Part shown: positions 10,217 through 49,790 of the stretch, in pieces | Layout: every line of letters starts with the position of its first letter | How positions within the stretch are numbered: the first letter of the stretch is position 1 | Assembly: GCA_964524845.1 (NCBI GenBank) | Contig: CAZGFX010000003.1 | Location: 115,954-179,953, forward strand | Length of the DNA: 64,000 bases | Reading direction: 5' to 3' | Origin: an uncultured Gammaproteobacteria bacterium | GTDB taxonomy: Bacteria > Patescibacteriota > Patescibacteriia > CAZGFX01 | The notes under the pieces: generated by a model | Told to the model about the DNA's origin: nothing | Database searches by the model: none | What the model saw: only the letters and a program-made list of their open reading frames with translations | Program-made: the position numbers and the translations under genes

Positions 10217-10221
10217 AATAC

Positions 10222-10250: not shown

Positions 10251-10251
10251 A

Positions 10252-10669: not shown

Positions 10670-10678
10670 AATTATACG

Positions 10679-10707
10679 TTGACATTGATAATATAAAGAA
10701 TACAATA
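10679..10707 (+). promoter_or_regulatory. promoter of the 10727 gene
   Basis: ttgaca, 16 nt, then 'tacaat', then the RBS 'aaaggagg' 5 nt before the ATG. Confidence 0.5.
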
Positions 10708-10726
10708 ACAAAAAAAGGAGGTCACC

Positions 10727-34341: not shown

Positions 34342-34454
34342 ATGTATCCTCCGCCCCAGTGGATACTACCAATAAAAGCCTCTTATCGAACCTGGATAAG
34401 GGGCTTTTCTAATATACAAACATGAATTGTTCCACGCGGAACAACTTGTAATTT

Positions 34455-34850
34455 CATCTTGATTATCTTTAATGTCGTTTTGACTATCTTTAATGTCATC
34501 CCGAACTTCTTTAATATCACTTCGAATCCCGCCATCGGCGGGAAGAAACCCCCAACATTGTATTTCTATGTCATCCTGAACCCTTAGTCCTGAGCCTTTA
34601 GTCCTGAACAATGTCATCCTGAACTGACCTTGTCATCCTGAATTTATTTCAGGATCTATGTATTCCTTTCAGGATCTATGTATTCCTTTCAGGATCTGCA
34701 CCATTTCAGGATCTGTCTTGACACATTGTTTTCTGGAAAAACTAACTTCTCATATTATTAAAGCCACACGGCAGATGCTGAAATAAATTCAGCATGACAG
34801 TTTTAAAGTATCAACAGTTTATCAACACCTTATTTACAGCATGACAAATA
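34455..34850. repeat. Dispersed-repeat block G
   Basis: 'tctttaatgtc' x3, the hairpin 'cccgccatcggcggg', 'ttgtcatcctgaa' units, the junction hairpin 'gtcatcctgaatttatttcaggatct', 'ttcaggatct' x4 at 20-nt spacing, and the hairpin 'gctgaaataaattcagc'. Confidence 0.8.
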
Positions 34851-34940
34851 AATTGTATAAATAATATTATTTTTATAACACTATTCTAATTATTCTCAAA
34901 ATATGTTATTATATAAATGTTATTAAATTAAGAAAAGTCC

Positions 34941-36305
34941 ATGCCCAAAAGAATAAAAATAATTGCAACACTTCTTTTAATAGTGTTTGCAACAACTCTT
35001 TCCGGATGCGGGGATACTCCTACCGGAGCTGTGACAAATTATAAAAAAGTTACGCTTAATTTTTGGGGTGTCTGGGATGACACGTCAACGATTCAACCAA
35101 TTATAAATTCCTTTACCGCTTTGTATCCGAAAATACAAATCAATTATAAAAAAGTAGGTTACGATAATTACAAAGAAGAACTTCTTAATGCATGGGCGGA
35201 TGGGGCTGGTCCTGACATACTTTCAATTCCAAATGATTGGATACGAGAATTCCAACACAGACTTACGCAAATGCCACGAAGTGTAAAACTTCCTAAACAA
35301 GTTGTACAAGAAGATTTTTCAGGAAAGAAAACATTTTACACAGTGCTCGAAGATGCTCCGCTTAAAACACCAAAAGTAATCAAACAAGAATTTGTTGATG
35401 TGGTTACACAAGATGGAATCATTAACAACGAAGTTTATGGACTTCCATTCAGTATCGACACGCTTGCTCTCTATTACAATAAAGCGATGATTACGACCGC
35501 GGGTATTCCTCTTCCTGCAAAAAACTGGACCGACCTTGTATCACAAATTCCTTTTCTTACGAAGCTCGATTCAACCGACCAAACAAAAATAATTCAGTCC
35601 GCTATCGCACTTGGTGGATCAAAAAATATAACTCGCGGATCTGATATTTTGGCACTACTCATGATGCAAAATGGTGCTCCAATGAGCAGTGATAGAGGGG
35701 TTGATTTTGGTGCTGAGTCAGGCGTTCGTTCTCCTGCATACGAAGCACTTTCTTTTTATACTGACTTTGCAAACCCAAACAAGGTTGTTTATTCATGGAA
35801 CGACACTCTCCCAAACTCACTTGAAGCGTTCACATCAGGGCGATGCGCATATTTTATAGGATATGCATATCATAAAAAAGTTTTGGAAGAAAGGTCTCCA
35901 AAGATGGAAATTGGTGTTGCGCCAATGCTTCAAATCGATCAAAGCAAGCCTGTTAATTTCGCACGATACTGGATGAATGTCGTATCAAACAAATCAGAGC
36001 ACGCTGATCTTGCGTGGGCATTTCTTACTTATGCAACTGACGCACAAAATGTAATTCCTTATTTAAATGCTACGAATGCACCAACCGCACTTCGCTCGCT
36101 TATATCAGCACAAAAACAAGATGAAACTGTTGAAATTTTTCTCGATCAAGTTCTTACGGCACGAAGTTGGTACCGAGGAAAAAATGCACTTGCAACCGAA
36201 ACTATTTTACAAAACCTCGTCGCATCATTTATGCTTGTAACAAAACCGGACGATCAGCTTGGTATAATAGGACGAGCATCCTCACAAATTAACGCAACAT
36301 ATTAA
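34941..36305 (+). CDS. extracellular solute-binding lipoprotein (ABC transporter SBP family 1-like)
   Basis: Lipobox 'LSGCG'. About 450 aa. Sugar-SBP-like composition. No cognate permease or ATPase in the window. Confidence 0.55.
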   Translation: MPKRIKIIATLLLIVFATTLSGCGDTPTGAVTNYKKVTLNFWGVWDDTSTIQPIINSFTALYPKIQINYKKVGYDNYKEELLNAWADGAGPDILSIPNDWIREFQHRLTQMPRSVKLPKQVVQEDFSGKKTFYTVLEDAPLKTPKVIKQEFVDVVTQDGIINNEVYGLPFSIDTLALYYNKAMITTAGIPLPAKNWTDLVSQIPFLTKLDSTDQTKIIQSAIALGGSKNITRGSDILALLMMQNGAPMSSDRGVDFGAESGVRSPAYEALSFYTDFANPNKVVYSWNDTLPNSLEAFTSGRCAYFIGYAYHKKVLEERSPKMEIGVAPMLQIDQSKPVNFARYWMNVVSNKSEHADLAWAFLTYATDAQNVIPYLNATNAPTALRSLISAQKQDETVEIFLDQVLTARSWYRGKNALATETILQNLVASFMLVTKPDDQLGIIGRASSQINATY

Positions 36306-36316: not shown

Positions 36317-37363
36317 ATGATACATTCTATTTTATCTTTTTTCTCATATATAGGAGCACAAATACTTCCAATCATTGCAAATGCTGCCGATACGAGCACA
36401 ACATCTCAAAATGCTTTTAAGCCAATTTCAAATATAAGCCGAGGATGTTATGCGCATGGAGATTGTACTTTGTGTGATTTATTAGATGTGTTTTCGTCCG
36501 TTGCAGAGTGGGTGATAGGTTTCTCCGGTTCTGTTGCATTGCTCATGGTAGTGTGGTTTGGTCTTAAACTTCTACTCCCAAACAATGCTAGCGAAGGAAT
36601 AAAAAAAGCAAAAACCGGAATTATAGCTTCTGTTACAGGGCTCGCAGTAGTATTAGGTGCATGGACGATGATGAACTGGGGACTTGCGTTTCTTTTAAAA
36701 CCAGACATTGCTCCAGCAAACCAAGAAAAATATATAAAGCCCGCATTATTTAAAAGCAACAATGCATGGTACTCTATATGTGAAGAGTATAGATATAGAA
36801 ACATTGCAACAAATTATAATATCGAAACACTTGGATATGAATGTAATAATGATGGTGCTCTTTGCGGATTTAAAAAAGACCAAAACAACGACTGTCAGAC
36901 TGGACCCTGTGTTTATGGGGTGTGTAATATAATAAACAACAACAAAACAACATATTGCACAACACTTTCTTATGGTAAAAATTTTACAACAAATGGAAAA
37001 TTTAATGGGTCAAACGTTGACGTAAACTATGATACAAAATTTAACACATGGTGCGCATATAGATATGGTGGTACATGTTCTCCAATAAAAGAAATTCGAG
37101 ATGGAACGGTTATATATGAAGACGAGGGAACCCCTGTTATTATAGAAGGAGGAAACACTGGTGGAATCTGTCCTAATGGATCAGGGTGTATATATCCAAA
37201 AAACCAGTCTTGGAGCGTAGAAAAGGGGTTAGATTTAATCAACAGAACCGGTGGTTGTGAAAGTATAAAATCACCAGCTGGATGTACAGCATGGTCTTCG
37301 GAATGCAAATGGGAAGCTGGAAAATCAGGGGCCACTGGCAAATGTAGCAAATCTTCTAAATAA
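36317..37363 (+). CDS. T4SS pilin-like (TrbC/VirB2-type) protein with a ~200-aa Cys-rich C-terminal domain
   Basis: TM1 'VALLMVVWFGLKLLL', then 'GIKKAKTGIIASVTGLAVVLGAW', then 18 or more Cys in the C-terminal half. Confidence 0.55.
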   Translation: MIHSILSFFSYIGAQILPIIANAADTSTTSQNAFKPISNISRGCYAHGDCTLCDLLDVFSSVAEWVIGFSGSVALLMVVWFGLKLLLPNNASEGIKKAKTGIIASVTGLAVVLGAWTMMNWGLAFLLKPDIAPANQEKYIKPALFKSNNAWYSICEEYRYRNIATNYNIETLGYECNNDGALCGFKKDQNNDCQTGPCVYGVCNIINNNKTTYCTTLSYGKNFTTNGKFNGSNVDVNYDTKFNTWCAYRYGGTCSPIKEIRDGTVIYEDEGTPVIIEGGNTGGICPNGSGCIYPKNQSWSVEKGLDLINRTGGCESIKSPAGCTAWSSECKWEAGKSGATGKCSKSSK

Positions 37364-37375
37364 CGAATAATAATT

Positions 37376-37762
37376 ATGTTTATCACTATGAAATCTTTTC
37401 TTAAAAAACATGCATATACAATTATGTGGACGGTTGTGTGTGTTGTAGCAGGAGTAATGTTCTATAAATATCAAAGTGTATATGCTCAAACACTTCCTGA
37501 TCCACTTGGAACAGATCCCAATAAACCACTTACACCACAAACACTTATAGGACGAGCTGTGAGATATCTTTTCGGAGTAGCTGGATCATTAGCACTTCTT
37601 AATTTTGTTATTGCTGGAATTCGTATGATGATGGCACAAGGAGTTCCTGACAAAGTAAACGCAGCCAAAAAATCGATGCAATATACTGTAATTGGCTTAG
37701 TTGCGATGTTTACAAGCTATGCAATTATTCGATTTATCATAATTTTGCTTCAAAACAAGTAA
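37376..37762 (+). CDS. T4SS pilin-like small membrane protein
   Basis: 'LALLNFVIAGIRMMMAQGVPDKVNAAKKSMQYTVIGLVAMFTSYAI'. Confidence 0.6.
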   Translation: MFITMKSFLKKHAYTIMWTVVCVVAGVMFYKYQSVYAQTLPDPLGTDPNKPLTPQTLIGRAVRYLFGVAGSLALLNFVIAGIRMMMAQGVPDKVNAAKKSMQYTVIGLVAMFTSYAIIRFIIILLQNK

Positions 37763-37919
37763 TTTTCGTGTTTTATAAAATAGTGATATACACTTTTTTC
37801 GTAAAATGGGGTATAATAATATTGTTGTCTTAATGACAACTCTGAACTTAAGTTCGGACATCCGTTTTTAATACGGATTCCAAATACTATATTAAAGTTT
37901 AACAATTAAGACTTAGTCT

Positions 37920-38291
37920 ATGATGAATAAGGTTAAGACGCTTGTTGCACCTATCGCGGCGTTTGCCATAACAGCGTTTGCAAATTCTGCAAAAGCTATT
38001 TCTGTAAATTTTGACGTCGTATCAAGCACTGGTCTTGGTACAACTGGTCTCGAAGACTCAATTGCTCGTGTAATTAACATTGCACTTGGCTTCTTGGGTT
38101 TGATTTCAGTTATTATCATTCTCCTTGGTGGATTCAAATGGATGACATCAGGTGGTGATGGTGAAAAAATAAAAGGCGCTAAAAAACTTATTGGCGCTGG
38201 AGTAGTTGGTCTTGCTATCGTCCTCGCGGCGTATGCAATCGCTCAGTTTGCTGTAAGCAAATTACTAAATGTTACAGGAGGCGACCAATAA
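37920..38291 (+). CDS. T4SS pilin-like small membrane protein
   Basis: 'LISVIIILLGGFKWMTSGGDGEKIKGAKKLIGAGVVGLAIVLAAYAI'. Confidence 0.65.
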   Translation: MMNKVKTLVAPIAAFAITAFANSAKAISVNFDVVSSTGLGTTGLEDSIARVINIALGFLGLISVIIILLGGFKWMTSGGDGEKIKGAKKLIGAGVVGLAIVLAAYAIAQFAVSKLLNVTGGDQ

Positions 38292-38323
38292 TTTATTTCT
38301 TTAACATACATAAACAAAATACT

Positions 38324-38809
38324 ATGCGAACAAACTCTTTCAGACTTCTTACAACATCACTGGCCATAGCAAGTATTTTGTTTGGTTTGTTGCAGACAGA
38401 TTCTTTGGCATATGCCAAAGAATCTACTGTGCACCAAACAAGCGAGAGAATGCTCCTCGCACAAACAACAACTCAACCGAACACATTCGGACTTGATGAA
38501 TCAAAAGTTGAATCCGGAGTAAAATTTACGGAAGGATCTCCTTACTCATTAATCGGAATAGTCATCAATGTAATACTCAGTTTTCTTGGAATCATATTCT
38601 TAGTCATAGTTATATATGCGGGCGTACTATGGATGACTGCGAGCGGAAACAGCGATCAGATTAAGAAGGCGAAAAATATGATCCAAAACGCTATAATCGG
38701 ACTTATTGTTGTCGCGATGGCATATATCATTACTCAGAACATATATGATCTCATAACGACAAAACTCCCAAGTGGAACCGGAAATCAACAACAGACACCA
38801 ACCCAATAA
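38324..38809 (+). CDS. T4SS pilin-like small membrane protein
   Basis: 'IIFLVIVIYAGVLWMTASGNSDQIKKAKNMIQNAIIGLIVVAMAYII'. Confidence 0.65.
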   Translation: MRTNSFRLLTTSLAIASILFGLLQTDSLAYAKESTVHQTSERMLLAQTTTQPNTFGLDESKVESGVKFTEGSPYSLIGIVINVILSFLGIIFLVIVIYAGVLWMTASGNSDQIKKAKNMIQNAIIGLIVVAMAYIITQNIYDLITTKLPSGTGNQQQTPTQ

Positions 38810-38832
38810 CGAATATATTTAATAATACCTCG

Positions 38833-39978
38833 ATGAAAACAACCCTTATCAATCACGGAAGCATTAGTAAATGGACGAAAATACTCACTATAATGTTCGC
38901 CGTGTCTGCTTTTTTTATTTTTGGAAATTCCGCAAGCGCTGAATTTACAGGACAGTGCCAGGGAAATCCAATCGAAGGCACAAACAACAAAGAAACGGAA
39001 TTTTCTGTATCTGTTATAAAACAAGTAAACAACAACGGACGAGAACAAGAACCAGAAGTAAAAAATGGTTCTGTAACAGTTACTTTTATAGGAGATTATG
39101 TGAATGTAATATTAAGTGGAATTGGTGGATCAACCGCACAACAAGCAAAAATAGATCTAGAGAGCATTAGTGCTGATGACAAAAATACGATTTTAAAAGA
39201 ATTGTATGAAGAATATATAAAAAATGACACATATAAACCATATCGTGATACAGCAAAAGAAAAATGCGGAAATGATTGTTATGGTAATGACTATGTAGAC
39301 GAAAATTATTTTTTAGAAAAAAACCAATCAACAACTTTCAAGATCAATTTTTTATCGGATAAACTTGATAAAAATAATTTAGAATCTTTTATAAATAAAT
39401 TGAAAATATCCTCAACAATAAAAATCCCAGTAATATGTACACTAAAGAAATGTAATGATTTTTCATACGAAACGTGCCCGACCGCAAAAGGGTGTAAAGT
39501 TACAAACATTAACACATGTGTTGATACGTCTGAGACAGGTGACAGTGGAGGAGATTTTTTAACAAACCTTAAAGAAACACAAAGAAAAACAAGTTTATAT
39601 AAAGAACAAACAAATATATCGTCAACAGCAACAATTGATGTGATTGCTAACATAATAGAAAGAATTTTGCAATTTTTAGGAATAATTCTGATGCTTCTTG
39701 TCATGTATTCCGGCTATCTATGGCTTACAGCAATGGGTAACAAAGACAAGATAACTAGAGCAAAAACAATTATTGTAAACGCTGTCATAGGAATTGTAAT
39801 AGTCGCCGCTGCGTATAGTATAACCGCATTTGTCATGAGCAGAATACAATCAGCGACAGAAACAGGGGACACAGAAAGTGTTGGATGTGAAAAATACAAA
39901 GAAGAAACACAGTGTAAAAACATACCAGAATGTTTATGGAACAAGGTGTCCGGTATTTGTGAAGATATAAATAAATAA
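38833..39978 (+). CDS. T4SS pilin-like protein with a long N-terminal extracellular domain and a Cys-rich C-terminal tail
   Basis: 'ILMLLVMYSGYLWLTAMGNKDKITRAKTIIVNAVIGIVIVAAAYSI', followed by 'CEKYKEETQCKNIPECLWNKVSGICEDI'. Confidence 0.6.
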   Translation: MKTTLINHGSISKWTKILTIMFAVSAFFIFGNSASAEFTGQCQGNPIEGTNNKETEFSVSVIKQVNNNGREQEPEVKNGSVTVTFIGDYVNVILSGIGGSTAQQAKIDLESISADDKNTILKELYEEYIKNDTYKPYRDTAKEKCGNDCYGNDYVDENYFLEKNQSTTFKINFLSDKLDKNNLESFINKLKISSTIKIPVICTLKKCNDFSYETCPTAKGCKVTNINTCVDTSETGDSGGDFLTNLKETQRKTSLYKEQTNISSTATIDVIANIIERILQFLGIILMLLVMYSGYLWLTAMGNKDKITRAKTIIVNAVIGIVIVAAAYSITAFVMSRIQSATETGDTESVGCEKYKEETQCKNIPECLWNKVSGICEDINK

Positions 39979-39987
39979 GTTTATTAT

Positions 39988-40533
39988 ATGAGCAAAATAA
40001 AAATAACAAATATTATAATATTATCAATTTTTTGCTTATTGTTTACAATTATAATAATTTCTCCTGTCATAAGCGCAGCAGATTGTACAAACACAACAGA
40101 AGGTCAAATACCAGATCCCGATTGTGCACTTAAAAATGTAAAATCAAATATCGATTCATATAAATCACAGGAACCGGACACTACAAATCCTGAGTTTTAC
40201 GCGGGCGCCCTTATCCAGACAATACTTATATATGTAGGAACCGTATTTCTTATACTTATGCTATATGCAGGAGTTAATTGGATGCTAGCGAATGGGAATC
40301 CTGACAGAATAGCCAAATCAAAATCAATACTTCAGCACTCTGTAATAGGACTTATTGTTATCGTATTTGCATATTCTATCGCGCTATTCGTAGTACAAAG
40401 AGCCGAGAAGATAAAGAATCCGGTTGGTTTTACAAGGTGTGAATTATATACTAATCAGACACAATGTGAACAAAACACATCTTGCGTATGGATAAAATCA
40501 ACTGATAATCCAAATGGTGGTGTGTGTAAATAA
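39988..40533 (+). CDS. T4SS pilin-like protein with a Cys-rich C-terminal tail
   Basis: 'VFLILMLYAGVNWMLANGNPDRIAKSKSILQHSVIGLIVIVFAYSI', followed by 'CELYTNQTQCEQNTSCVWIKS...GGVCK'. Confidence 0.6.
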   Translation: MSKIKITNIIILSIFCLLFTIIIISPVISAADCTNTTEGQIPDPDCALKNVKSNIDSYKSQEPDTTNPEFYAGALIQTILIYVGTVFLILMLYAGVNWMLANGNPDRIAKSKSILQHSVIGLIVIVFAYSIALFVVQRAEKIKNPVGFTRCELYTNQTQCEQNTSCVWIKSTDNPNGGVCK

Positions 40534-40537
40534 TTTT

Positions 40538-41167
40538 ATGAAACATTCTTTTTTACAAAAAACAATAATTACATGTGTCTCTTTTGTCTTTTTATGTATC
40601 CCTGTTTTTTCTTATGCACAACTTGGTACAGCAACAAGTGAAAAAATCCAGGAAAACACAACCCAAACAGGAGTAGAGGCAGGACTTATAGCAAATAGGG
40701 AAGCAGCTGCTAAAGAAGATATAAAAACAAAAGCGATACAAATTGTACAATACGCACTTGCTCTACTTGGTACAATACTTGTCATTATGATTTTGTGGGC
40801 AGGAACACAAATATTATTTTCTGGTGGAAATTCTGAAAAAATAAAGGCTGGCAAGAAAACGATCATAAATGCAATTGCCGGACTTGCTCTTATTCTCGTG
40901 GCTTACAGCGGAACCGTATTCCTAACAAAACGACTTAATCAAGTATTTAGCGAACCTCAAATAGGTACACCGTGTAAGAGCGACGCCGATTGTCCGAAAG
41001 GGACTCGTTGCGCATCACAACTTCTAAGTAAGAGTGTTTGCGCCCCATGGGGGGTAAATGCTTTTTGCAACAAATGTACATCTGATACAGATTGCCCAAG
41101 TAATCAAAGATGTGTCGAGGGTAGTTTTATTCCTGGGGTTGTGGTAGGTCAAAAGTGTTGTAAATAA
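40538..41167 (+). CDS. T4SS pilin-like protein with a Cys-rich C-terminal domain
   Basis: 'ILVIMILWAGTQILFSGGNSEKIKAGKKTIINAIAGLALILVAYS', followed by 'CKSDADCPKGTRC...CNKCTSDTDCPSNQRC...KCCK'. Start taken at the internal Met 'MKHSF'. Confidence 0.6.
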   Translation: MKHSFLQKTIITCVSFVFLCIPVFSYAQLGTATSEKIQENTTQTGVEAGLIANREAAAKEDIKTKAIQIVQYALALLGTILVIMILWAGTQILFSGGNSEKIKAGKKTIINAIAGLALILVAYSGTVFLTKRLNQVFSEPQIGTPCKSDADCPKGTRCASQLLSKSVCAPWGVNAFCNKCTSDTDCPSNQRCVEGSFIPGVVVGQKCCK

Positions 41168-41205
41168 TATATATCTCGTAATTCATAATTATCTAAAATA
41201 TTCAT

Positions 41206-41571
41206 ATGAAAAAAATACTTCTCATAATGTCGACTATGTTCTATTCTTTTCTATCAAATGCTAGTTCTGTGTTTGCTCAAGACTCACAAAGCCTAGATAG
41301 GTTTGGAAAACAAGCAGGATATGCAACTGATACCGCAAAAGACCCTGGAATAATAGCGAGCGATTTTATTTCAACATCATTATCATATATCGGAATCATC
41401 GCTGTTATCCTTTTCGTCATTGCAGGATTTATATGGATGACAGCAGGAGGAAATGCGAAGAAAGTCGAGACTGCAAAACAAATGATATTCAGTACTGTTA
41501 TAGGTCTTGTTATCATCTTCGCCGCATTTGCTATAGTAATGACAGTTATCCGCACCGTCGGAACAAAATAA
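41206..41571 (+). CDS. T4SS pilin-like small membrane protein
   Basis: 'IAVILFVIAGFIWMTAGGNAKKVETAKQMIFSTVIGLVIIFAAFAI'. Confidence 0.65.
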   Translation: MKKILLIMSTMFYSFLSNASSVFAQDSQSLDRFGKQAGYATDTAKDPGIIASDFISTSLSYIGIIAVILFVIAGFIWMTAGGNAKKVETAKQMIFSTVIGLVIIFAAFAIVMTVIRTVGTK

Positions 41572-41589
41572 AACATACCCAATAAGAAA

Positions 41590-41624
41590 ATCCGTCCCGT
41601 GTTACGGGACGGATTTATTTTTTT
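41590..41624. terminator. strong bidirectional intrinsic terminator closing the pilin array
   Basis: 'atccgtcccgtgttacgggacggat' plus 'ttattttttt'. Confidence 0.7.
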
Positions 41625-43002
41625 AATAAACCGTTATTGGTTTTTCCGCTCCATATTCTGTGTTACCTAATTGAATATAAGAGTCGGGAATTATCGTTTC
41701 TTTCTCCTTTAACGATTCTTTTCCAGAGAAATAATCAATACTTCCGAAAAAAGTAGCCACTATTGTACTTCTTTGGGCACGTGCCTTTTTGTCTATAACG
41801 GGACACTTATCAAAAGCTGCAAAGTTCGGATGCACTAAAATTAAATGAAGTTTTTTCGCTTTCCCTTTGTGCTCTATATAATAAGAACTTCCTATTACCT
41901 TAACTGGCACATATCTGTCTTCTGGTACTTCAATCGCTACTATCCAACCAGGATCAACCATAAGTGTTTTTCCACCAAACATGATCTCAAACGTTTTATC
42001 AGATCTGGTGTTTGTGAAGGCGATGATGTAAGATCTGGTTTTTTTCTTCTCTGTAACGGAATAAAATCCTCCGTAAGTGCTGTAAATAGGATATAGTTTT
42101 AATTTATCCTTGCCATCACTTATTTCAGGAAGAAAAAGATAAATACCTGACTCTTGATCAAAATACTCATCAACTGATTTTTTGTTGTTTCCACCTGTTC
42201 TACGAGAAATTTCTTTCTCGTACCATTTCTTGCTGATAAGTATTTTTGTCAGTGTGAAACCGCTTGTTACCAAGTCTGAAAAATTATCATAGCCTCCTTC
42301 ATAATAATTATGAAAGTTACTATTAAACACATTCCATGTAACACCTGGCATCACCCAGTCAAAACATCTGACGTCCTCAGAAGACAGCACAATCCACACA
42401 TTAAACGTGAGATTATAAATGTCAGTAAATTTGTGCTTTTTGAAAAATGTATCCTGAGACACAGATTTCAGTGTTAGTGCCACCCCCAAATTGTTCGAAT
42501 CAAGCGAACCAAACATTTTCGCTATATCTTTTTCACTCCTGTTCGGGGATGTTCCCATTAAATCAACGTCTTTTCCAACTGAATCATCTGATGATAAAAG
42601 CAACATCTCTGTAGGAACAGGCGAGAATTCAGAAAGAAATTTAATGTGCTTATTAATGACCTTGCGATCGCTTTCAATAAACAGTTTATAAGTCTTTCCG
42701 TTTCCGTCCCGAACAGAAATTTCTTTTCCATCATCCCTGAGTGGAATTTCAACCGGGAAAACATCTCCTTCCAAAATCGTTTTTCCTTTGTACGTAAAAG
42801 GGTTAATGTCCTCGTTTTTCACAATAACGAAGACTTTTTCAGATGCTTTGTTTGTTAAGTCTCTTTCACTGATTCCTTTTTCTTTGTTAGGAGAAACCCA
42901 TTTTGCATTCTGAGTTCCTGCGCAAGAAACAAAGGAAAAAGCAATTAAAACGCTGGCAAAGAACAACATTAAGGTTTTCATGATATCCTCTTTCTGTCTC
43001 AT
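41623..43002 (-). CDS. hypothetical lipoprotein
   Basis: Signal plus lipobox 'SFVSCAG'. 459 aa. No family recognised. Confidence 0.5.
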   Translation of the reverse strand: MRQKEDIMKTLMLFFASVLIAFSFVSCAGTQNAKWVSPNKEKGISERDLTNKASEKVFVIVKNEDINPFTYKGKTILEGDVFPVEIPLRDDGKEISVRDGNGKTYKLFIESDRKVINKHIKFLSEFSPVPTEMLLLSSDDSVGKDVDLMGTSPNRSEKDIAKMFGSLDSNNLGVALTLKSVSQDTFFKKHKFTDIYNLTFNVWIVLSSEDVRCFDWVMPGVTWNVFNSNFHNYYEGGYDNFSDLVTSGFTLTKILISKKWYEKEISRRTGGNNKKSVDEYFDQESGIYLFLPEISDGKDKLKLYPIYSTYGGFYSVTEKKKTRSYIIAFTNTRSDKTFEIMFGGKTLMVDPGWIVAIEVPEDRYVPVKVIGSSYYIEHKGKAKKLHLILVHPNFAAFDKCPVIDKKARAQRSTIVATFFGSIDYFSGKESLKEKETIIPDSYIQLGNTEYGAEKPITVY

Positions 43003-43235
43003 TTATGAGACTTTTTGGTTTTTTAAACATGTTTATTATTAACTATTTTATCATTTAATTATAGCAAATAGTACAACAAAAGTCAATTAGTGTGTTCTTG
43101 GCTAAAATAAGTGATTTTAATATATATTTATTCGAAATACTCGAAAAAACAAATTATTATAAAAAGACTAAAAACAGTGGTTTTTACAAAAATAAAAAAG
43201 AGCGGTTATGTTTAATAACCACTCTTAATAAAAGA

Positions 43236-44027
43236 TTACTTGTTTGATCCGAGTAAATGAACAGACTCGATTCTTTTTAAATAAATAAGTCGATTTGATC
43301 CAGACTTATTATTTTTGTCATATTCTGTTGCTGGGTTAAAAATCGAAATACCTGTATAAGAAATTTTAGACGAAGAAAAATAATTTTTTACTTCCTCACA
43401 AAACTTCTTTGCCCTCATATCAGAAACCCACTTATATGACCGAAGTGTAATATCCTTTTCTCCTTTCGAATCATATTCACTTACAATCTTCCTGATGTTT
43501 TTTGGAACAGATCCGGCATCGGACAATGCAGTATAGTTTGCATTAGAAACAATTTTGATATTTGGAAAAGATCCTTTTTCGTTATAAAATCTATCGAATA
43601 CTACTCCAAGAATTTTCGCAATATCCTTGTGTTTCTGATTAAGATCTGTTTCCCACTTATCAAATTCTGTTCCTTCTAAAACAAGTTCTGATACCGATAA
43701 TTTTCCTTCGAGAAACAACCATAAATTATCAACGGTTTCCTGTACAACCTGAGTGTCGGTTCCACCAATCCCCAAATCCCTGACGAGCGGAGCACCAACA
43801 TCAGACACAGTAGGAGCAAGTGTAACGATTTTTATCGGTTCAGGACAACCACAATTGTCCCATGTTCCAGAAGCCAAATCACACTTATCCCAAACATCAG
43901 GAACACCATCATCGTCGGAATCCTGTTGCGCAACATAACGCGACGGCGCACACGAAACAGCGACGAGAGAAAATGTAATGGCGACAAGCCAAAACATGTT
44001 TTTGAACTTAACGAAAAACTTTTTCAT
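43236..44027 (-). CDS. hypothetical lipoprotein
   Basis: Signal plus lipobox 'VAVSCAP'. Hairpin 'ccccgtttgcgggg' in the 5' leader. Confidence 0.5.
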   Translation of the reverse strand: MKKFFVKFKNMFWLVAITFSLVAVSCAPSRYVAQQDSDDDGVPDVWDKCDLASGTWDNCGCPEPIKIVTLAPTVSDVGAPLVRDLGIGGTDTQVVQETVDNLWLFLEGKLSVSELVLEGTEFDKWETDLNQKHKDIAKILGVVFDRFYNEKGSFPNIKIVSNANYTALSDAGSVPKNIRKIVSEYDSKGEKDITLRSYKWVSDMRAKKFCEEVKNYFSSSKISYTGISIFNPATEYDKNNKSGSNRLIYLKRIESVHLLGSNK

Positions 44028-44153: not shown

Positions 44154-46010
44154 ATGAAAACATGGCTCAAATTAGCGATTGCGATACTTGTGTATAACTC
44201 TATATTTATCTGTTTTTGTCTATACAAGTACTTTCATTACCTGTATAACGGGCTTGATCTGGCTATATACACGAACGTTCTCCATAATATAATAAATGGA
44301 AACGGAGCTTGGTCGAGCATACAAATGCAAAATTATTTCGGTGATCATTTCGAACCATTTCTTTTTATTATTTCTATATTTTATTCTCTGTTTCAATCTC
44401 CTATTACGCTTCTTGTTATACAAACAATTGTTATCAGTTTATCCGTCATACCAATATATTTCATTTCAAAAAAATATTTTGATGAGAAAAAATCATTTCT
44501 CGTTTCAGTCGTGTGGCTTCTTATTCCGTTACTGCATAATATCAACTCATTTGAATTTCATATTTTGTCATTCGCGATACCGCTTATCGCATGGACATAT
44601 TATGCATATCAAAAAAACAACTTCTCACTATTTTGTATAATTGCTATTCTATCACTTCTTGTTCGAGAAGACGTCGCACTTGTAATTATGATGTTCGGGG
44701 TTCTATCTTGGATAGACAAAAAAGCGCTTCGTTGGAAGGTTTTTCCTGCTGTTATGGGATTTTTATACTTCCTCACAACAACATACTTTATAGGAAGATT
44801 ATCTGACAGCGGATCTTATAAATTTCTCGCATATTATGGATGGATACAAGCAAACACCCCACCATGGGAAATAATTATACATATTTTTAATCCTGCGAAT
44901 ATTCTTTTTGTATTTGTACTTCTCTGTATTTTTATCTTTCTTCCTATTTTTAAGTTACGAACTCTTATATTAATCATTCCGATTATTTTTCAAATCATAT
45001 TACAAGGAACAAACCACACATGGATCGTGCTCACAACACATTATACCAGTCTTCTCCTTCCTGTTTTTTTCATAGCGTCAATTCAGGGTTATTCCTCAAT
45101 AATCAAGGATGATAAAAATATTTTTTCTCGTTTTTTCGGCCAACACAAAGAACTTCTTCCTGTGCTTATAGGAGCTACAATCGTTTATACTACTATGGTT
45201 ATAGGGCCTTTTCTTGGCCTAATAAAGCCAGTTTATGATATAAAAACACAAATTTATAATGAACTTCTCTCTTCGATTGAGAAAAACACCGGAAAAACAA
45301 TAAATGCAACATTGGCAGTACTTCCGTTATATGCGAACACAGAAAACACATACTCACATCATTATACATTTCTAGGAAGATCACAATTCGGGGCACGAGA
45401 ATATAAAATTCCGAGTACACCAGATTACCATATAATAGACTTCGATGATTATTTTTATTATCAAAACAATTTTAAATATAATCCCGTTGTAGAAAGATAT
45501 TGGTCAGAAGCGACAAGTAATATAAAAAATGTTTTAGACCCAAAAAATTATTCAATAGAAAATTGTATAAACTCTTTGTGTGTTTTCAAAAAAGGCGGTT
45601 CTTATGAAATGTCTCGTTTCTATGAAAAAAGTGATTTCACAAGTAAAAAGGATTTTGAAGTGACGCTTGCAGAACAAAACAAAAACAATCAATTTATTGA
45701 CATAAAGATAAAATATCAGCAAAAAAACGTGGATAATAAGATGCTTTTTGCAAAATTCTCATATGAAAAGAATGGGCAAAAAATATATGAGACCTTAATA
45801 CCGGTTAATTATGGTTTTAAAAACTCTGACGAATGGGAGGCGAGAAGTGCATATATAAACTCGTATCATTTGTTTGTTCCTGATCCATCAATAATAATAC
45901 GAATGCAAGTCATAACGGCTCGCGGATATGAAACAATAGGAAGCATGCGCGAAACAATTCACAAGCTCAATAAGGAAAAGATTCTATACGAAACAATTTT
46001 GAAAAATTAA
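44154..46010 (+). CDS. polytopic membrane protein, DUF2079-like (putative envelope glycosyltransferase)
   Basis: About 12 TM in the N-terminal ~350 aa, plus a soluble C-terminal domain. 'GLDLAIYTNVLHNI' N-terminal motif. The family call is from memory. Confidence 0.4.
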   Translation: MKTWLKLAIAILVYNSIFICFCLYKYFHYLYNGLDLAIYTNVLHNIINGNGAWSSIQMQNYFGDHFEPFLFIISIFYSLFQSPITLLVIQTIVISLSVIPIYFISKKYFDEKKSFLVSVVWLLIPLLHNINSFEFHILSFAIPLIAWTYYAYQKNNFSLFCIIAILSLLVREDVALVIMMFGVLSWIDKKALRWKVFPAVMGFLYFLTTTYFIGRLSDSGSYKFLAYYGWIQANTPPWEIIIHIFNPANILFVFVLLCIFIFLPIFKLRTLILIIPIIFQIILQGTNHTWIVLTTHYTSLLLPVFFIASIQGYSSIIKDDKNIFSRFFGQHKELLPVLIGATIVYTTMVIGPFLGLIKPVYDIKTQIYNELLSSIEKNTGKTINATLAVLPLYANTENTYSHHYTFLGRSQFGAREYKIPSTPDYHIIDFDDYFYYQNNFKYNPVVERYWSEATSNIKNVLDPKNYSIENCINSLCVFKKGGSYEMSRFYEKSDFTSKKDFEVTLAEQNKNNQFIDIKIKYQQKNVDNKMLFAKFSYEKNGQKIYETLIPVNYGFKNSDEWEARSAYINSYHLFVPDPSIIIRMQVITARGYETIGSMRETIHKLNKEKILYETILKN

Positions 46011-47647
46011 CGAGAATTTTTTATAAACAAAATAAATCCATCAAATATCTTTGCTTCAAAGAAATTATTTGCCAATAGATTAGAACGCGCGAAATCAATT
46101 CGTTCATTAGAATTGTTTTTTGTATCAATCACCACATAATTTATTCTAGAATCCATGTCCTTCTTTTCTCCGTATATCAACGGGTATATTGAAGCTGATT
46201 TTTTATATGAAATGGTTTCAGCCCAATGCCCCGCAAAAACATTGTGTCCCGTATAAAAAGGTATCATAAAAGATAAGCGAGGGCTCGCAAGAACAACCCC
46301 TCGATCAAGTGTTTTCATGTAATCTAAGAGCTTTTTTTCTTCTTTTGTCATAACCACGGGTGGTTTTTCACGAGTTTGTTCAATAATAGATGTGCTTTCT
46401 GTCGCATACCCATGAATTGTAATTCCAAATAAAATTGTATAATAAATGAAAAACATGGCACACGAAAAAAACAATGATGCAACAACCCCTCTCAAAACAT
46501 ATCGAGACCATTTTGCAATAACAGAAGTATCAATACACGACAACGCTTGAACCGTAAGAATTGCAAATGTGAAATTCATTCCCTCTATATTTCTTCTTTG
46601 TTGGGAATATGGGGCAAACAAGAGAAACAATTGTATAAGACCGAGTGCGCACACATATAAAAAAACACTTCTTTGTTTCCAGTCATTTCTAAAACGCTCC
46701 CATACATACAAAAAAGAAAAAACAATTAAAAAACCAAAACTACCTAGAATATTTGAAAGAGGAGGGGTCTGAGTTATATTATTAAGCGCAACACTACGAA
46801 GCACGTCATTTATCGAATAAGCATATAAAAAATAAACGGCTGAAACCAACGGAAATAAGCCAAAAATACACGCTCTTTTAAAAATAAATAGTATATTTTT
46901 CTTATCAGCAAAATAAAACAATGCCCGCACAAAGAAAAAGAGTGTAACAACCGGAATATAATATGGGTGAAATTGTGCCAGAACGCCAAACACGAGGGAA
47001 CCTTTCCACGCGTATCCTATTTTTCCATCTGAGAAAATACGAAGTATATAATAAAAACACAGAATTAGAAGTGTCCATGAAAAAATAAAGTGAGGGGTTT
47101 CAAACATGGAAAGATAAGGAGAAATTTCGGTCGCCCATATATCCATAAAATAATACGAGGCCATGTTGTGTTCCGCATATCCAAACATACGAAGGATAAG
47201 TATTACATACCCAAAACCTCCACCAAATAACATAATAGAATGAGCGAGTTTCGTTTTCTTGTTATCACCAGAAAAGATATATTGTAAAACATAGAATGAA
47301 ACAAAAATAAGAATTGGGGATAACAAGTATTTTAGAAACATGAAGGTTCCAACCGGACTAAAACCAAGAAATTTTCCTAAAAGGCCTGAAACAAGCCAAA
47401 ATATATTGAAGAAACCAATAGCATCCACAACCGGATTAAATTGATTATGAACAAAAACACCACCATCAATAATCTGACGAATGTACTGAAAATAAACGAA
47501 TGTATCTGGATTAAAAAACTGTCCCAAAAACACGGTGTCTTTGTCTCCAAATAAAAATACAATTATATACGGCAATGAGGCCAGACACCAAACAAGAAGA
47601 ATAATACCTAGAAGCCACTTCCAATTTTTTCGTATAACTTCCAACAT
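46007..47647 (-). CDS. polytopic membrane protein (putative glycosyltransferase, PMT/ArnT-like)
   Basis: Twelve or more TM, plus a C-terminal soluble domain. Confidence 0.4.
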   Translation of the reverse strand: MLEVIRKNWKWLLGIILLVWCLASLPYIIVFLFGDKDTVFLGQFFNPDTFVYFQYIRQIIDGGVFVHNQFNPVVDAIGFFNIFWLVSGLLGKFLGFSPVGTFMFLKYLLSPILIFVSFYVLQYIFSGDNKKTKLAHSIMLFGGGFGYVILILRMFGYAEHNMASYYFMDIWATEISPYLSMFETPHFIFSWTLLILCFYYILRIFSDGKIGYAWKGSLVFGVLAQFHPYYIPVVTLFFFVRALFYFADKKNILFIFKRACIFGLFPLVSAVYFLYAYSINDVLRSVALNNITQTPPLSNILGSFGFLIVFSFLYVWERFRNDWKQRSVFLYVCALGLIQLFLLFAPYSQQRRNIEGMNFTFAILTVQALSCIDTSVIAKWSRYVLRGVVASLFFSCAMFFIYYTILFGITIHGYATESTSIIEQTREKPPVVMTKEEKKLLDYMKTLDRGVVLASPRLSFMIPFYTGHNVFAGHWAETISYKKSASIYPLIYGEKKDMDSRINYVVIDTKNNSNERIDFARSNLLANNFFEAKIFDGFILFIKNSR

Positions 47648-47679
47648 AATATTATAGGTGATATTATTATATCATACAT

Positions 47680-48987
47680 ATGAAAAAAATATTTTTGACA
47701 ATAAAAAATAATTATCATTTTTTATTACTACTATTTGCTTGCGTATTATCTACTATCATATATATAAAATTTAATGGCAGGCTGTTTTCTATAAAACACG
47801 ATAGTTTGTTACTACTAAGTAGCATTCTTCTTTTTCAAACAATCACTTGGGTTCTTGTGAGAAAACATATTAACACAATTTGGATCGTACTTCCTGTGTT
47901 TGGAATTTTGTGCGGACCCATTTTCTCCGCCGACTCTTATTTTTATATAGATAAATTTTATCAACTTATTCATCTCGGACAAAACCCATATTATACACTA
48001 AGTTTAGTACCGAATACGGAGCTACCCTATTTTAATATTTATAAAGATTCATTTTTCGCATACACCAAATTGATTTACGGACCTGTCTGGCTTCTTATTG
48101 GAAGTTTGTCAGTTTTATTTTCAAAAGCATCAACAATAATTCCTTTTATCATTCAATACAAAATATTATCAGCGGTTTTTGTCGGTGGAATTTCTTTTCT
48201 TATTTATAAATTCTCGGGAGATAAAAAATATGCTATCTGGTATGCGGTGGCGCCGATCGTCGTGTTTGAACTGATTATCGACGCGCACAATGACGCGATG
48301 ATGATATTTTTCATCGTACTTTCTCTTCTGTTAATGAAGAAAAAATATATAGTTTGGGCAAGTATGGCATTTGTTGGGGCCTTATTAGTTAAGTACTCAG
48401 CGCTTCTGCTGTTGCCTTTTTTTGGCTTATATATAATAAAAAATCGTCTTATAACGTGGAAATCGTTTATCGGCATAGTGATCGGCGCCACCGTGCTTGT
48501 ATTAGGATTCTACGCTCCTTTTTTTCGTGATTTTCACATGTTTGATGGTTTTCTGGAATTTGCACGCGGAGGCCATGTGCTTAGTGCTGGAATACTTGGA
48601 TATATCATGACAAATATTTTTTCTCTTTCGGAAATAACAAACACTTTAATAAAAGCAATTTCTTTTATAATAATCTTTTCAATAATAATTTTCATAACGA
48701 GAAAGAAGTTTTCCATTGATTCTTATATATACTCATCTATTTTTGTTTATATCTTTTTTGGAATGATCATGACTTATTGGGCGATGCCATGGTATCTCAC
48801 ACTTCCTTTCACACTGCTTTTCTTTTTAGAGAACCCGAAAATGAGAAACACCCTTATTTACACAATAATTTGTATTTGGCTGATTTTTTTCGCTACACAA
48901 TACAGTTTTATAGGCTCATCAATGCTTTTTATGTTGTGTATTGCGTATGGTGTTTTTCGTATTACAAAACAAGTAAATACGCCCTAG
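47680..48987 (+). CDS. polytopic membrane protein (putative GT87/DUF2029-like glycosyltransferase)
   Basis: About 12 TM. No soluble domain. Confidence 0.35.
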   Translation: MKKIFLTIKNNYHFLLLLFACVLSTIIYIKFNGRLFSIKHDSLLLLSSILLFQTITWVLVRKHINTIWIVLPVFGILCGPIFSADSYFYIDKFYQLIHLGQNPYYTLSLVPNTELPYFNIYKDSFFAYTKLIYGPVWLLIGSLSVLFSKASTIIPFIIQYKILSAVFVGGISFLIYKFSGDKKYAIWYAVAPIVVFELIIDAHNDAMMIFFIVLSLLLMKKKYIVWASMAFVGALLVKYSALLLLPFFGLYIIKNRLITWKSFIGIVIGATVLVLGFYAPFFRDFHMFDGFLEFARGGHVLSAGILGYIMTNIFSLSEITNTLIKAISFIIIFSIIIFITRKKFSIDSYIYSSIFVYIFFGMIMTYWAMPWYLTLPFTLLFFLENPKMRNTLIYTIICIWLIFFATQYSFIGSSMLFMLCIAYGVFRITKQVNTP

Positions 48988-49079
48988 TGATCGTGATATG
49001 AATATTTTTAAATCCATACTGGTTGATTTTATGTAAAAAAAACAGTATTATCGCTTTATAATACATTCACAATATTGTT

Positions 49080-49790
49080 ATGTCAGGTCATTCGCACGCA
49101 TCAAATGTTGCTCGTAAAAAAGGGCTCGTAAATGCAAAGAAGGGGGCTCTTTTCACGCGTCTTGCTCAAAATATAACACTAGCGGCAAAAAGCGGTGACG
49201 ATATTAATTTCAATCCCTCGCTCCGTATGGCAATAGAAAAAGCGAAAGAAGCGAACATGCCGAAAGACAATATAGAAAGAGCTATAAAAAAAGGAACAGG
49301 CGAACTTGGTGGCGCAAGCATAGAAGAGGTTGTATATGAGGCGTTTGGTCCGGATGGGATAGCACTTCTAATTAAATGCGTCACTGACAACACAAATCGC
49401 GCCCTCACATCTGTCAAAACAACATTGAGTAAAAACAATGGTAATTTCGCGTCAGCCGGAGCCGTTGCGTGGATGTTTGATGAGCGTGGTTGCATCGAAA
49501 TTGAAAAAACAAACTGGAACGATGAAAAAGAACTTGAAATTATCGATGCCGGCGCTCTTGATGTCGAAGTGGGAGACGACAGAATATATGTCACAACAGA
49601 AAAAAATACACTTAACACAGTAAGAGAGGTGCTCGAGAAAAAAGGATTTACAATAAAAGGAATCGAACTTGTTATGATTCCAAAAAACACAGTGAATGTT
49701 CCTGATAAAGAAAAAATTATGGCTTTTCTGGATGTGGTCGAAGAAGCAGAAGATGTTAATGAGATATTTCACAATGCTAATTTAAACTAA
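49080..49790 (+). CDS. yebC: YebC/PmpR family DNA-binding transcriptional regulator
   Basis: 'MSGHSHASNVARKKG...KGALFTRL' canonical N-terminus. Confidence 0.9.
   Translation: MSGHSHASNVARKKGLVNAKKGALFTRLAQNITLAAKSGDDINFNPSLRMAIEKAKEANMPKDNIERAIKKGTGELGGASIEEVVYEAFGPDGIALLIKCVTDNTNRALTSVKTTLSKNNGNFASAGAVAWMFDERGCIEIEKTNWNDEKELEIIDAGALDVEVGDDRIYVTTEKNTLNTVREVLEKKGFTIKGIELVMIPKNTVNVPDKEKIMAFLDVVEEAEDVNEIFHNANLN

Follow-up and report, generated by a model that had tools for sequence, protein, structure and literature searches.

Tandem arrays of genes for VirB2-like pilins of type IV secretion systems (T4SSs) are already known from the Patescibacteria. A survey of this phylum found 441 such arrays, of 2-11 genes with an average identity of 25% and often near dnaA, and a pilin gene near virB4 in 1,135 of 1,948 assemblies; its authors suggest an adaptation to differing host strains (Quinonero-Coronel et al. 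2025, PMC12102498). In Ca. Southlakia epibionticum ML1 an essential six-gene pilin array, SEML1_0014-0019, lies directly after VirB6 inside the T4SS cluster, with no solute-binding protein (SBP) gene (Wang et al. 2023, PMC10633639; PMC12857230). According to the literature on these arrays, a pilus has not yet been observed on any Patescibacterium. The locus described here is a further example of this published kind of array, and an earlier note on the same DNA, which called tandem pilin arrays common in CPR genomes, agrees with the published record (PMC12102498, PMC10633639).

We confirmed that the locus is a row of eight divergent genes for VirB2-like secretion-system pilins on a Patescibacteria (CPR) chromosome. 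An ORF check of the window, meaning the whole 64,000-nt stretch of DNA that was analysed, found all eight (P1 to P8) on the + strand at 36317-41571, tandem and co-directional as the earlier note had described. The window also holds dnaA, 16 kb from the array, and the nearest relatives of its UvrB, SBP and pilins are named Patescibacteria, Kerfeldbacteria or Komeilibacteria. The array extent given before stands for the pilins but not for the operon, whose first gene is an SBP gene at 34941-36305 (+ strand), 11 nt 5′ of P1. Intergenic gaps across the array are 4-38 nt, apart from 157 nt between P2 and P3. A bidirectional intrinsic terminator at 41588-41616 (13-bp stem with seven G-C pairs, 3-nt loop, T-runs on both strands) separates the array from a convergent gene at 41623-43002, and the tight spacing and strong terminator that had been reported are thus both present. 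Such close packing, with just one strong terminator for the whole operon, suggests that the pilins are co-expressed.

A sigma-70-like promoter at 34841-34870 (+ strand; ATGACA-18-TATTAT, 10/12 consensus matches) lies within the 600-nt repeat-rich intergenic region 5′ of the SBP gene, 34342-34940. It is a candidate only, because promoter-like sites in this region are no more numerous than expected from shuffling. The sole long gap, 37763-37919 between P2 and P3, contains a TATAAT sequence and a small hairpin at 37841-37858 (+ strand; 7-bp stem with three G-C pairs, from a scan for terminator-like structures). The hairpin may be a putative attenuator, and the gap may hold a putative internal promoter that splits SBP-P1-P2 from P3-P8.

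The N-terminal signal-like segment of every pilin is hydrophobic and corresponds to a Sec-type signal peptide, cleavable at an A-x-A-like site. Behind it come two hydrophobic helices with a short basic loop between them, and additional domains are found at the N- or C-terminus only. The two-helix architecture and common W-M-T core proposed earlier hold throughout, as all eight align without gaps over 82 columns around the motif W-M-T-A-G-G-N...K-I..AK..I...IGL, with a mean pairwise core identity of 27.6% (range 17-41.5%). The Pfam search that had been proposed returned PF18895 (T4SS_pilin) as the top match for 8/8 (E 3.7e-5 to 8.3e-11), so that the shared core is not due to chance; six of the eight exceed the gathering score of 26.6, with P3 and P5 slightly under it. 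P8 also matches TrbC/VirB2 (PF04956) weakly, at 18.6 bits and E 0.0022 (GA 27.9). The short canonical pilins are P2 (37376-37762, 128 aa, PF18895 42.3 bits, one Cys), P3 (37920-38291, 123 aa, 24.1 bits) and P8, the last in the array (41206-41571, 121 aa, 29.7 bits). P4 (38324-38809, 161 aa, 35.4 bits) has a Thr/Gln-rich N-terminal extension and, like P3 and P8, no Cys.

Wider searches led to the same family. At E≤1e-3, a profile built from the eight found 80,363 cluster representatives; no further ORF of the window matched it. With a profile made from the eight cores, 1,229 proteins were retrieved. The best 120 of these are without exception short PF18895 proteins, and about a quarter of them match PF04956 as well; where the sources name core-profile matches, 'pilin' and 'VirB2 component' are among the names and the origin is Patescibacteria. 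The alignment of a 123-sequence family profile with Agrobacterium VirB2 is in register, starting at the mature N-terminus and covering both helices (hhalign probability 69%, E 4.4e-5). A profile search of the PDB gave no significant similarity to solved pilins (VirB2 E 5.1). AlphaFold2 (AF2) modelled the core helical hairpins of P1 and P7 confidently (pLDDT 84-94; P1 87-94, P7 84-92). Foldseek gave no match at E≤1e-3, and its weak matches include the Aeropyrum conjugation pilus 8dfu (TM 0.57 normalised to target).

Cys-rich segments are confined to the pilin termini. The four Cys-rich C-terminal tails claimed by the earlier note (P1, P5, P6 and P7) are real, and the peptides it quoted are found in the sequences, but the extra mass of P5 is mostly an N-terminal domain. 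Of the 18 Cys of P1 (36317-37363, 348 aa, PF18895 27.3 bits), 15 belong to the 221-aa C-terminal tail, which has a 4-Cys module at its end (aa 314-343); the P1 core spans about aa 46-127, and the Cys motif C-x5-C-x2-C lies directly before helix 1. P5 (38833-39978, 381 aa, 25.5 bits) has 12 Cys, eight N-terminal and four in the C-terminal tail. Its N-terminal domain, about 220 aa long and predicted to be extracellular, includes a 4-Cys module at aa 207-229 and is followed by the core (aa 258-339) and the C-terminal 4-Cys module CEKYKEETQCKNIPECLWNKVSGIC (aa 352-376); the tail has a weak Pfam match to PSI (E 0.16). P6 (39988-40533, 181 aa, 27.6 bits) has seven Cys, including an N-terminal pair and four in the C-terminal tail, where the module CELYTNQTQCEQNTSCVWIKSTDNPNGGVC occupies aa 151-180. 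P7 (40538-41167, 209 aa, 40.1 bits) has 13 Cys, 10 of them in a 75-aa tail made of two Dickkopf/knottin-like C-x5-DCP-x4-RC repeats, with Pfam matches to Dickkopf_N (26.4 bits, GA 25) and Squash (23.6, GA 22). The longest ORF for P7 starts at 40514 (217 aa); 40538 is most likely the true start because the sister-strain ortholog P0002 begins at that Met (M9). AF2 gave the P7 tail short beta strands at moderate confidence (pLDDT 58-81). The model of the P1 tail has low confidence, mostly below pLDDT 50, and is therefore uninformative rather than evidence of disorder.

The Cys-rich tails are predicted to be extracytoplasmic rather than cytoplasmic: the inter-helix loop has a net charge of +2 to +3 in 8/8 pilins, and seven of the eight have an acidic or neutral N-flank (+1 in P7). 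Such tails occur in 12/80 related pilins, without homology between loci, and some relatives have a peptidoglycan (PG)-binding domain in their place; in loci L008 and L009 the SBP-adjacent pilin carries PG_binding_1. A tip or adhesin role for the Cys-rich pilins is plausible, making them candidates for such a function.

The first gene of the operon encodes an orphan solute-binding lipoprotein of the SBP_bac_1 (CUT1 sugar-type) family (Pfam SBP_bac_1 95.4 bits, SBP_bac_8 76.2 bits) with a lipobox-like TLSGC motif; its closest solved structures are maltose/sugar SBPs (E 1e-10), and no permease or ATPase gene adjoins it. Pilin genes lie directly 3′ of its homologues (33-42% identity) in 10/10 evaluable SBP-seeded loci, and an SBP_bac_1 gene lies 5′ of the pilin gene in 7/7 pilin-seeded loci, these 17 sampled loci being biased toward relatives of this array. 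At several of them the SBP and pilin genes overlap by 4 nt or are 1 nt apart. Judging from these neighbourhoods, the SBP, presumed to be co-transcribed, is a conserved partner of the pilins.

Each paralogue in the window is closer to a pilin of another genome than to its own paralogues. The six best matches to P1 outside the genome are all position-1 (SBP-adjacent) pilins, the best external matches to P2 are at array positions 2-3, and the P3 core is 50-58% identical to pilins in other arrays. On sequence comparison, then, the paralogues are shown to be ancient, older than the species splits, with array position partly conserved. Sister-strain orthologs are 88-90% identical (90% for P8 and its ortholog P0005), with substitutions concentrated in the signal peptide; between P7 and P0002 the tail is identical at 71/75 positions (95%), and every Cys is kept. 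Some relatives have 2-15 pilin domains in one polypeptide, and two of these, from related loci, are continuous table-11 ORFs (one on an NCBI genome contig, one on a JGI metagenome contig).

Our preferred reading, with a probability of about 60%, is that the SBP lipoprotein and eight ancient VirB2/TrbC-like PF18895 pilins form one CPR operon for a T4SS-built surface filament, a function that we infer by analogy. The mature pilin would be a membrane helical hairpin with a cytoplasmic loop and its two termini on the outside, as expected from the positive-inside rule and from established knowledge of VirB2 and TraA. A VirB4-containing T4SS of the Gram-positive (MPF-FATA-like) type, encoded elsewhere in the genome, would extract the hairpins, which might then be built into a surface filament or conduit at host-cell contact. 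The paralogues most likely have distinct structural roles (major/minor or base/tip subunits) and are not interchangeable copies, given that they predate species splits and partly keep their positions. The disulfide-rich modules of P1, P5, P6 and P7 would be exposed on the outer surface and could contribute to stability or to specific binding.

As the earlier note had claimed, VirB4, VirB6 and VirD4 are absent from the window: Pfam scans of nearly all ORFs of at least 110 aa were negative, and among the large ORFs a Walker A motif occurs in UvrB and DnaA only. In related loci with Pfam-marked or scanned neighbours, genes for T4SS ATPases or channels are likewise missing up to 10 kb from the array. 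The link to a T4SS is therefore drawn from homology and from other lineages, and polypeptides of 2-15 pilin domains and PG-binding fusions do not easily fit a pilus with one hairpin per subunit. These same observations, with the SBP gene directly 5′ at all sampled loci and sometimes overlapping, would suit an envelope module independent of any T4SS, in which membrane-resident hairpins anchor or scaffold small extracellular domains (disulfide knots, peptidoglycan-binding) without a filament and, together with the SBP lipoprotein, capture glycans or solutes from the host. We think this unlikely, however, as the proteins are homologous to VirB2 (hhalign), the Southlakia members follow VirB6 in an essential T4SS cluster without an SBP (PMC10633639, PMC12857230), pilin genes are near virB4 in the majority of surveyed assemblies (PMC12102498), and the sampling of loci is biased.

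More doubtful is that the paralogues are interchangeable major pilins that vary the surface for evasion or host-range switching, as proposed for VirB2 of Bartonella and Anaplasma. The low paralogue identity (17-41%), the variable, non-homologous tails and the host-strain adaptation suggested by the 2025 survey (PMC12102498) would fit. However, their closer relatives in distant genomes and partly conserved positions mark the copies as old and individually maintained, sister strains differ mainly in the signal peptide and hardly in the Cys-rich tail, and the single-terminator operon suggests co-expression. That these are an unrelated two-TM family (holin-like or generic membrane peptides) mislabelled as pilins is largely refuted: they are short two-helix membrane proteins with modest Pfam scores (24-42 bits) and scattered weak matches to FixQ and DUF898, yet none of the eight was assigned to a holin or other two-TM family (no holin family at E≤1 in Pfam), PF18895 is the top match throughout, PF18895 proteins recovered by the family profile run to tens of thousands, the VirB2 alignment runs from the mature N-terminus across both helices, and all have a cleavable signal peptide.

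Against the published Patescibacteria and Southlakia arrays, the surface-filament operon proposed here shares the family (PF18895, with or without PF04956), phylum, chromosomal location often near dnaA, and tandem co-directional arrangement of 2-11 genes whose products are about 25% identical to one another. It differs in that an orphan SBP_bac_1 gene comes first, here and at the 17 related loci, whereas the Southlakia array follows VirB6 within a T4SS cluster and has no SBP; here and at the related loci scanned, no T4SS genes lie within 10 kb. Cys-rich terminal domains are present on four of the eight pilins. Neither this feature, nor an SBP gene heading the array, nor the great age and partly conserved positions of the paralogues was found in these published accounts of such arrays (PMC12102498, PMC10633639). 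The Mbov_0395 family of Mycoplasma ICEs (NCBIfam NF045849) is likewise two-helix and pilin-like, from a wall-less/monoderm lineage with an MPF-FATA-type system. Seven of the eight paralogues match its whole 80-residue model weakly (16-30 bits, cut-off 40), and it is a single-copy ICE gene whereas ours form a chromosomal array. Bartonella and Anaplasma are also host-associated bacteria with several divergent tandem VirB2 copies; theirs lie within the virB locus and are taken as variation repertoires, whereas the paralogues here are ancient, partly position-conserved across distant genomes and apart from T4SS genes. With Agrobacterium VirB2 and PF04956 the pilins share a long cleaved leader, the pattern D-P...I..lG..G...G..WM into helix 1, a loop and helix 2. 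Only P8 scores against PF04956, however, and that weakly; the loop is about eight residues longer than in VirB2, the host is monoderm, no virB operon adjoins, and there is no sign of cyclisation. To our knowledge, canonical VirB2/TrbC pilins do not carry fused terminal domains. PrgZ and TraC, encoded on enterococcal conjugative plasmids, are SBPs that bind pheromones; they are members of the oligopeptide SBP family 5 and have a signalling role. Like the SBP here on our preferred reading, each is a solute-binding lipoprotein encoded with a Gram-positive conjugation/T4SS system and without its own permease, but they belong to family 5 and ours to family 1, the sugar type.

The eight tandem pilin-like ORFs that the earlier note had placed at 36317-41571 (P1-P8, in order) are all present, consecutive and on the + strand, and encode 348, 128, 123, 161, 381, 181, 217/209 and 121 aa. 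The likely start of P7 is 40538, as proposed there, rather than 40514, because the ortholog in a sister strain begins at the corresponding Met. Intergenic distances of 4-38 nt agree with the tight spacing that had been described, except for one gap of 157 nt between P2 and P3. The strong terminator said to close the array is a hairpin at 41588-41616 between P8 and the convergent gene, with a 13-bp stem (7 G-C) and T-runs on both strands.

The T4SS-pilin assignment was confirmed by profile search. PF18895 (T4SS_pilin) is the top Pfam match for all eight paralogues, and six reach its gathering score of 26.6 bits (P1 27.3, P2 42.3, P4 35.4, P6 27.6, P7 40.1 and P8 29.7). P3 (24.1 bits) and P5 (25.5 bits) fall 1-2.5 bits under the cut-off with PF18895 still their top match, and align with the other paralogues across all 82 columns of the shared two-helix core. 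The core alignment has no gaps, a mean pairwise identity of 27.6% (range 17-41.5%), and three Gly and one Lys that are invariant. A profile of the eight cores retrieved 1,229 proteins from a word-indexed database; the best 120 of these are all PF18895 proteins of 101-144 aa, and several, from Patescibacteria, Falkowbacteria and Kerfeldbacteria, are named pilin or VirB2. The family is very large: an exhaustive HMMER search with this profile matched 80,363 cluster representatives (E<=1e-3). Membership of P1-P8 in PF18895 is solid.

Homology to VirB2 is moderately supported. P8 alone matches PF04956 (TrbC/VirB2), at 18.6 bits versus a cut-off of 27.9, and a precomputed PF04956 match is on record for roughly one in four of the nearest family members. 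A 123-sequence family profile aligned in register with authentic Agrobacterium VirB2 (the Ti plasmid sequence) at an hhalign probability of 69% (E 4.4e-5), covering the mature N-terminus, helix 1, the W-M motif and helix 2; the loop is ~8 residues longer in the window's family than in Agrobacterium VirB2. Neither core profile (8 or 123 sequences) had a significant match among PDB sequences, where VirB2 (8exh) scored E 5.1 and the remaining matches were spurious 'Pizza' designer proteins. Weak matches of seven paralogues (P2-P8) to the NCBIfam model NF045849, a pilin-like conjugal transfer protein of Mycoplasma ICEs, hint that VirB2-like pilins may not be wholly absent from the MPF-FATA-type systems of wall-less/monoderm bacteria. 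A holin or other two-TM family was rejected, as no holin family matched at E<=1 in Pfam or NCBIfam. Type IV pilus pilins were also rejected: P1-P8 have Sec-type leaders with A-x-A-like sites and two helices instead of one, carry no class III signal peptide (G/FTLIE-type prepilin peptidase site), and match no N_methyl or type IV pilin Pfam family at E<=1.

Every paralogue has the architecture typical of PF18895: a cleavable signal peptide (a hydrophobic leader with an A-x-A-like end), then two strongly hydrophobic 19-residue segments joined by a short basic loop. The net charge of this loop is +2 to +3 in all eight, and the segment preceding helix 1 is neutral or acidic in seven (+1 in P7). In VirB2 and TraA pilins the loop is cytoplasmic and both termini face outward; by analogy with these, and by the positive-inside rule, the loops of P1-P8 would face the cytoplasm and their termini the outside. 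AF2 models of P1 and P7 have confident helical hairpin cores (pLDDT 84-94). Foldseek with the P7 model found nothing in the PDB at E<=1e-3, a two-helix hairpin being too generic a query.

The cysteines of the decorated paralogues concentrate in these predicted outward-facing termini. P1 has three before helix 1 and 15 in its 221-aa C-tail, P5 has eight in an N-terminal domain of ~220 aa and four in the tail, P6 has two N-terminal and four in the tail, and P7 has 10 in a 75-aa tail. The Cys-rich C-terminal modules reported for four paralogues are thus found on P1, P5, P6 and P7, although eight of the P5 cysteines are N-terminal. A 4-Cys module, C-x7-8-C-x5-6-C-x-[WV]-x5-10-C, terminates P1, P5 and P6, and occurs in no other window ORF of at least 100 aa. 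The large N-terminal domain of P5 (aa 37-257, 38833-39600), predicted to be extracellular and without a Pfam match, has a further copy of the module at aa 207-229, which leaves P5 with decorations on either end.

The P7 tail consists of two C-x5-DCP-x4-RC repeats and is narrowly over the cut-offs of Dickkopf_N (26.4, GA 25) and Squash (23.6, GA 22). Its top Foldseek matches, the double-knot spider toxin 2n8f and Dkk4 (5o57), are not significant (E 0.2-0.4). Structure prediction bore on the idea of small disulfide-knotted domains unevenly: AF2 gave a moderate-confidence fold for the P7 tail (pLDDT 58-81) and an uninformative model for the P1 tail, because the tails lack alignment depth. When P7 alone served as the query for homologues, the only sequences found were P7 and an ortholog at 88%.

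Among related loci from public genomes and metagenomes (L002-L017), Cys-rich C-tails were found in 12 of 80 pilins and in 8 of 14 loci, which puts the window, with four of eight, towards the upper limit. Tails from different loci are not homologous to one another: when the window tails and the N-domain of P5 were compared by BLAST with every fetched pilin and locus, nothing matched across loci apart from one weak Cys-repeat similarity between the P7 tail and the fetched protein P0263. The pilins at position 1 share a Cys-bearing motif immediately before helix 1 and often have a C-terminal domain, which is Cys-rich in the window, L002, L005, L014 and L015. In L009, a Kerfeldbacteria genome contig, and L008, a JGI metagenome contig syntenic with it, a peptidoglycan-binding domain (PG_binding_1) takes the place of the Cys-rich tail of P1 (pilin genes at 8465-9274 and 8455-9270, respectively).

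The earlier note missed a conserved partner of the array. A 454-aa lipoprotein gene (SBP, 34941-36305, + strand) ends 11 nt upstream of P1; its product matches SBP_bac_1 at 95.4 bits, with a visible TLSGC lipobox-like motif as lipoprotein signal, and its closest solved relatives are sugar/maltose-binding proteins. No cognate permease or ATPase gene is adjacent to the SBP gene in the window or in L005-L012; the only ABC genes seen, of MacB type in L009, are 6 kb distant and unrelated. A search of public genomes and metagenomes with the single SBP protein gave 11 homologous loci (33-42% identity). A pilin is the next gene in all ten that have downstream DNA (nine independent, since L007 and L016 are apparently the same organism), with arrays of up to 11. 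In the reverse test, which started from seven pilins of the profile search that lie on long contigs, an SBP_bac_1 gene directly precedes a pilin gene on 7/7 contigs. The loci sampled are biased toward the clades closest to the window's array. In L005, L008 and L009 the two genes share 4 nt or are separated by just 1 nt.

The intergenic region upstream of the SBP gene contains short tandem repeats, one with a 14-nt unit (x2.6, 34574-34609) and one, perfect, with a 20-nt unit (x2.5, 34647-34697), as well as the repeated inverted motifs GTCATCCTGAA / TTCAGGATC. An independent Logan contig that ends approximately at the repeat region (34574-34697) carries the whole operon and the same downstream genes, and a chimeric assembly was therefore rejected.

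The window covers ordinary chromosomal DNA around the origin, with genes for DnaA, DnaN, YidC, UvrB, NusA, trigger factor, RuvA/RuvC, TyrRS, a PBP1-type protein, GDH and FemAB; no tRNA or Rfam element was found in the 64 kb. The nearest relatives of its UvrB share just 57-61% identity and carry the names Patescibacteria, Kerfeldbacteria or Saccharibacteria; the host is therefore a Patescibacterium without a close sequenced relative. In line with the reported lack of VirB4, VirB6 and VirD4, none was found in the 64 kb, where a Walker A motif is present in just two large ORFs, UvrB and DnaA, and no T4SS ATPase or channel family is recorded within 10 kb in related loci with Pfam-marked or scanned neighbours. 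Elsewhere in the window, an IS110-family-like transposase ORF (578 aa, weak Transposase_20 match) lies within 6311-10727 and is followed by ~2.7 kb without an ORF of at least 110 aa.

The gene order NTP_transferase, SBP, pilins, DUF2079, GT-C-like membrane proteins, YebC, RuvC recurs among the loci, with NTP_transferase often 5′ of SBP in relatives. The window matches this block from SBP onward, apart from two lipoprotein-like genes (459 and 263 aa, - strand, 41623-44027; no Pfam match) between the array and DUF2079. The pair looks like an insertion in the window's lineage, since the array adjoins DUF2079 directly in L008 and L009. Downstream, at 44154-50275 and in L008, L009 and L010, large GT-C-like membrane proteins (DUF2079, MptA_B, PMT_2 and DUF6798) precede YebC and RuvC. 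Given these neighbours and the Ser/Thr-rich, predicted exposed segments of the pilins, a link between the array and glycosylation is conceivable.

Each window paralogue has its best match in the array of another genome, not among its own paralogues. The six best matches of P1 are all position-1 (SBP-adjacent) pilins, and those of P2 are at array positions 2-3. We compared P7 and P8 with their orthologs in the sister strain (JGI contig 3300075153) by protein identity, per region for P7, as the paralogues (~25% identity) are saturated for dN/dS. P8 is 90% identical and P7 88%, the latter made up of 15/28 in the signal peptide, 98/106 in the mature N-terminus and core, and 71/75 in the tail, where all ten Cys are kept. 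These comparisons point to old, individually maintained subunits, probably under purifying selection, and the array does not look like a fast-turnover variation repertoire; the age and fixed positions of the paralogues argue for a heteromeric structure over antigenic variation.

The reading we prefer, with a probability of about 0.6, is that the helical-hairpin pilins are exported via Sec and that a T4SS encoded elsewhere would assemble them into a heteromeric surface filament or conduit. The disulfide-rich modules would be displayed on its outer side, where they may act as adhesins, and the SBP would be a conserved accessory. Of this picture, the analysis establishes the family, the operon structure, the synteny and the age of the paralogues, and it supports the predicted topology; assembly by a T4SS, the filament and the adhesin role are inferred. 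The main rival, which we consider unlikely, is an envelope module built around the SBP and independent of any T4SS. It is favoured by the consistent absence of T4SS genes from the neighbourhood and by the PG-binding fusions on some position-1 pilins. It is also favoured by the existence of polypeptides with several pilin domains, which are not easily squared with the classical pilus subunit of a single hairpin.

Many family members are such single polypeptides, with 2-15 tandem pilin hairpin domains (among the fetched proteins P0124-P0273); examples are P0125 (552 aa, 6 repeats) and P0126 (1775 aa, 15 or more). Genes of this kind at 9242-9943 in L008 and 9048-9899 in L009 (an NCBI genome contig) are continuous table-11 ORFs and hence not gene-calling artefacts.

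A bolder proposal, to which we give quite a low probability, is that the SBP-headed, virB4-detached operon encodes a distinct conserved machine of non-Saccharimonadia Patescibacteria. The orphan sugar-type binding lipoprotein would act with pilin paralogues whose set is old and fixed, beginning with a base or anchor subtype next to the SBP that carries Cys-knot or peptidoglycan-binding domains and continuing with canonical and decorated subunits. The filament or conduit that they build together might span the wall and either capture or channel glycans or solutes from the host. If true, this would tie epibiont T4SS pilins to nutrient acquisition and not to the export of DNA or effectors.

A large part of bacterial diversity belongs to Patescibacteria, which live attached to other cells. 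In Ca. Southlakia epibionticum, the single species tested, both the T4SS and the pilin array proved essential (Wang et al. 2023, PMC10633639), and a 2025 review still treats the pilus of monoderm Patescibacteria as hypothetical. That such arrays are common in CPR genomes, as the earlier note held, is borne out by Quinonero-Coronel et al. (2025, PMC12102498), who used PF04956 and PF18895 to search 3,035 Patescibacteria genomes and reported 441 arrays of 2-11 pilin genes with a mean identity of 25%; T4SS genes were frequently near dnaA, and pilin genes near virB4 in 1,135 of 1,948 assemblies. Our locus belongs to this published kind of array, and some of its details are undocumented: SBPs and Cys-rich pilin domains are unmentioned in this context in the texts examined in a limited literature search. 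It adds nothing categorically new, and it sharpens three points. The constant companion of the pilin array in one large group is a solute-binding lipoprotein, not the secretion ATPase. The paralogues are old and keep their places in the array, in favour of the heteromeric structure. The pilins can bear surface domains, disulfide knots or PG-binding modules, that are candidate determinants of specificity or anchoring. Two leads are worth following, the SBP as a conserved partner and the pilins that are specific to an array position and decorated with extra domains. The Southlakia array (SEML1_0014-0019) follows VirB6 and has no SBP, whereas that of the window is headed by one; arrays headed by an SBP are therefore organised differently, at least among the nearest clades to the one in the window.
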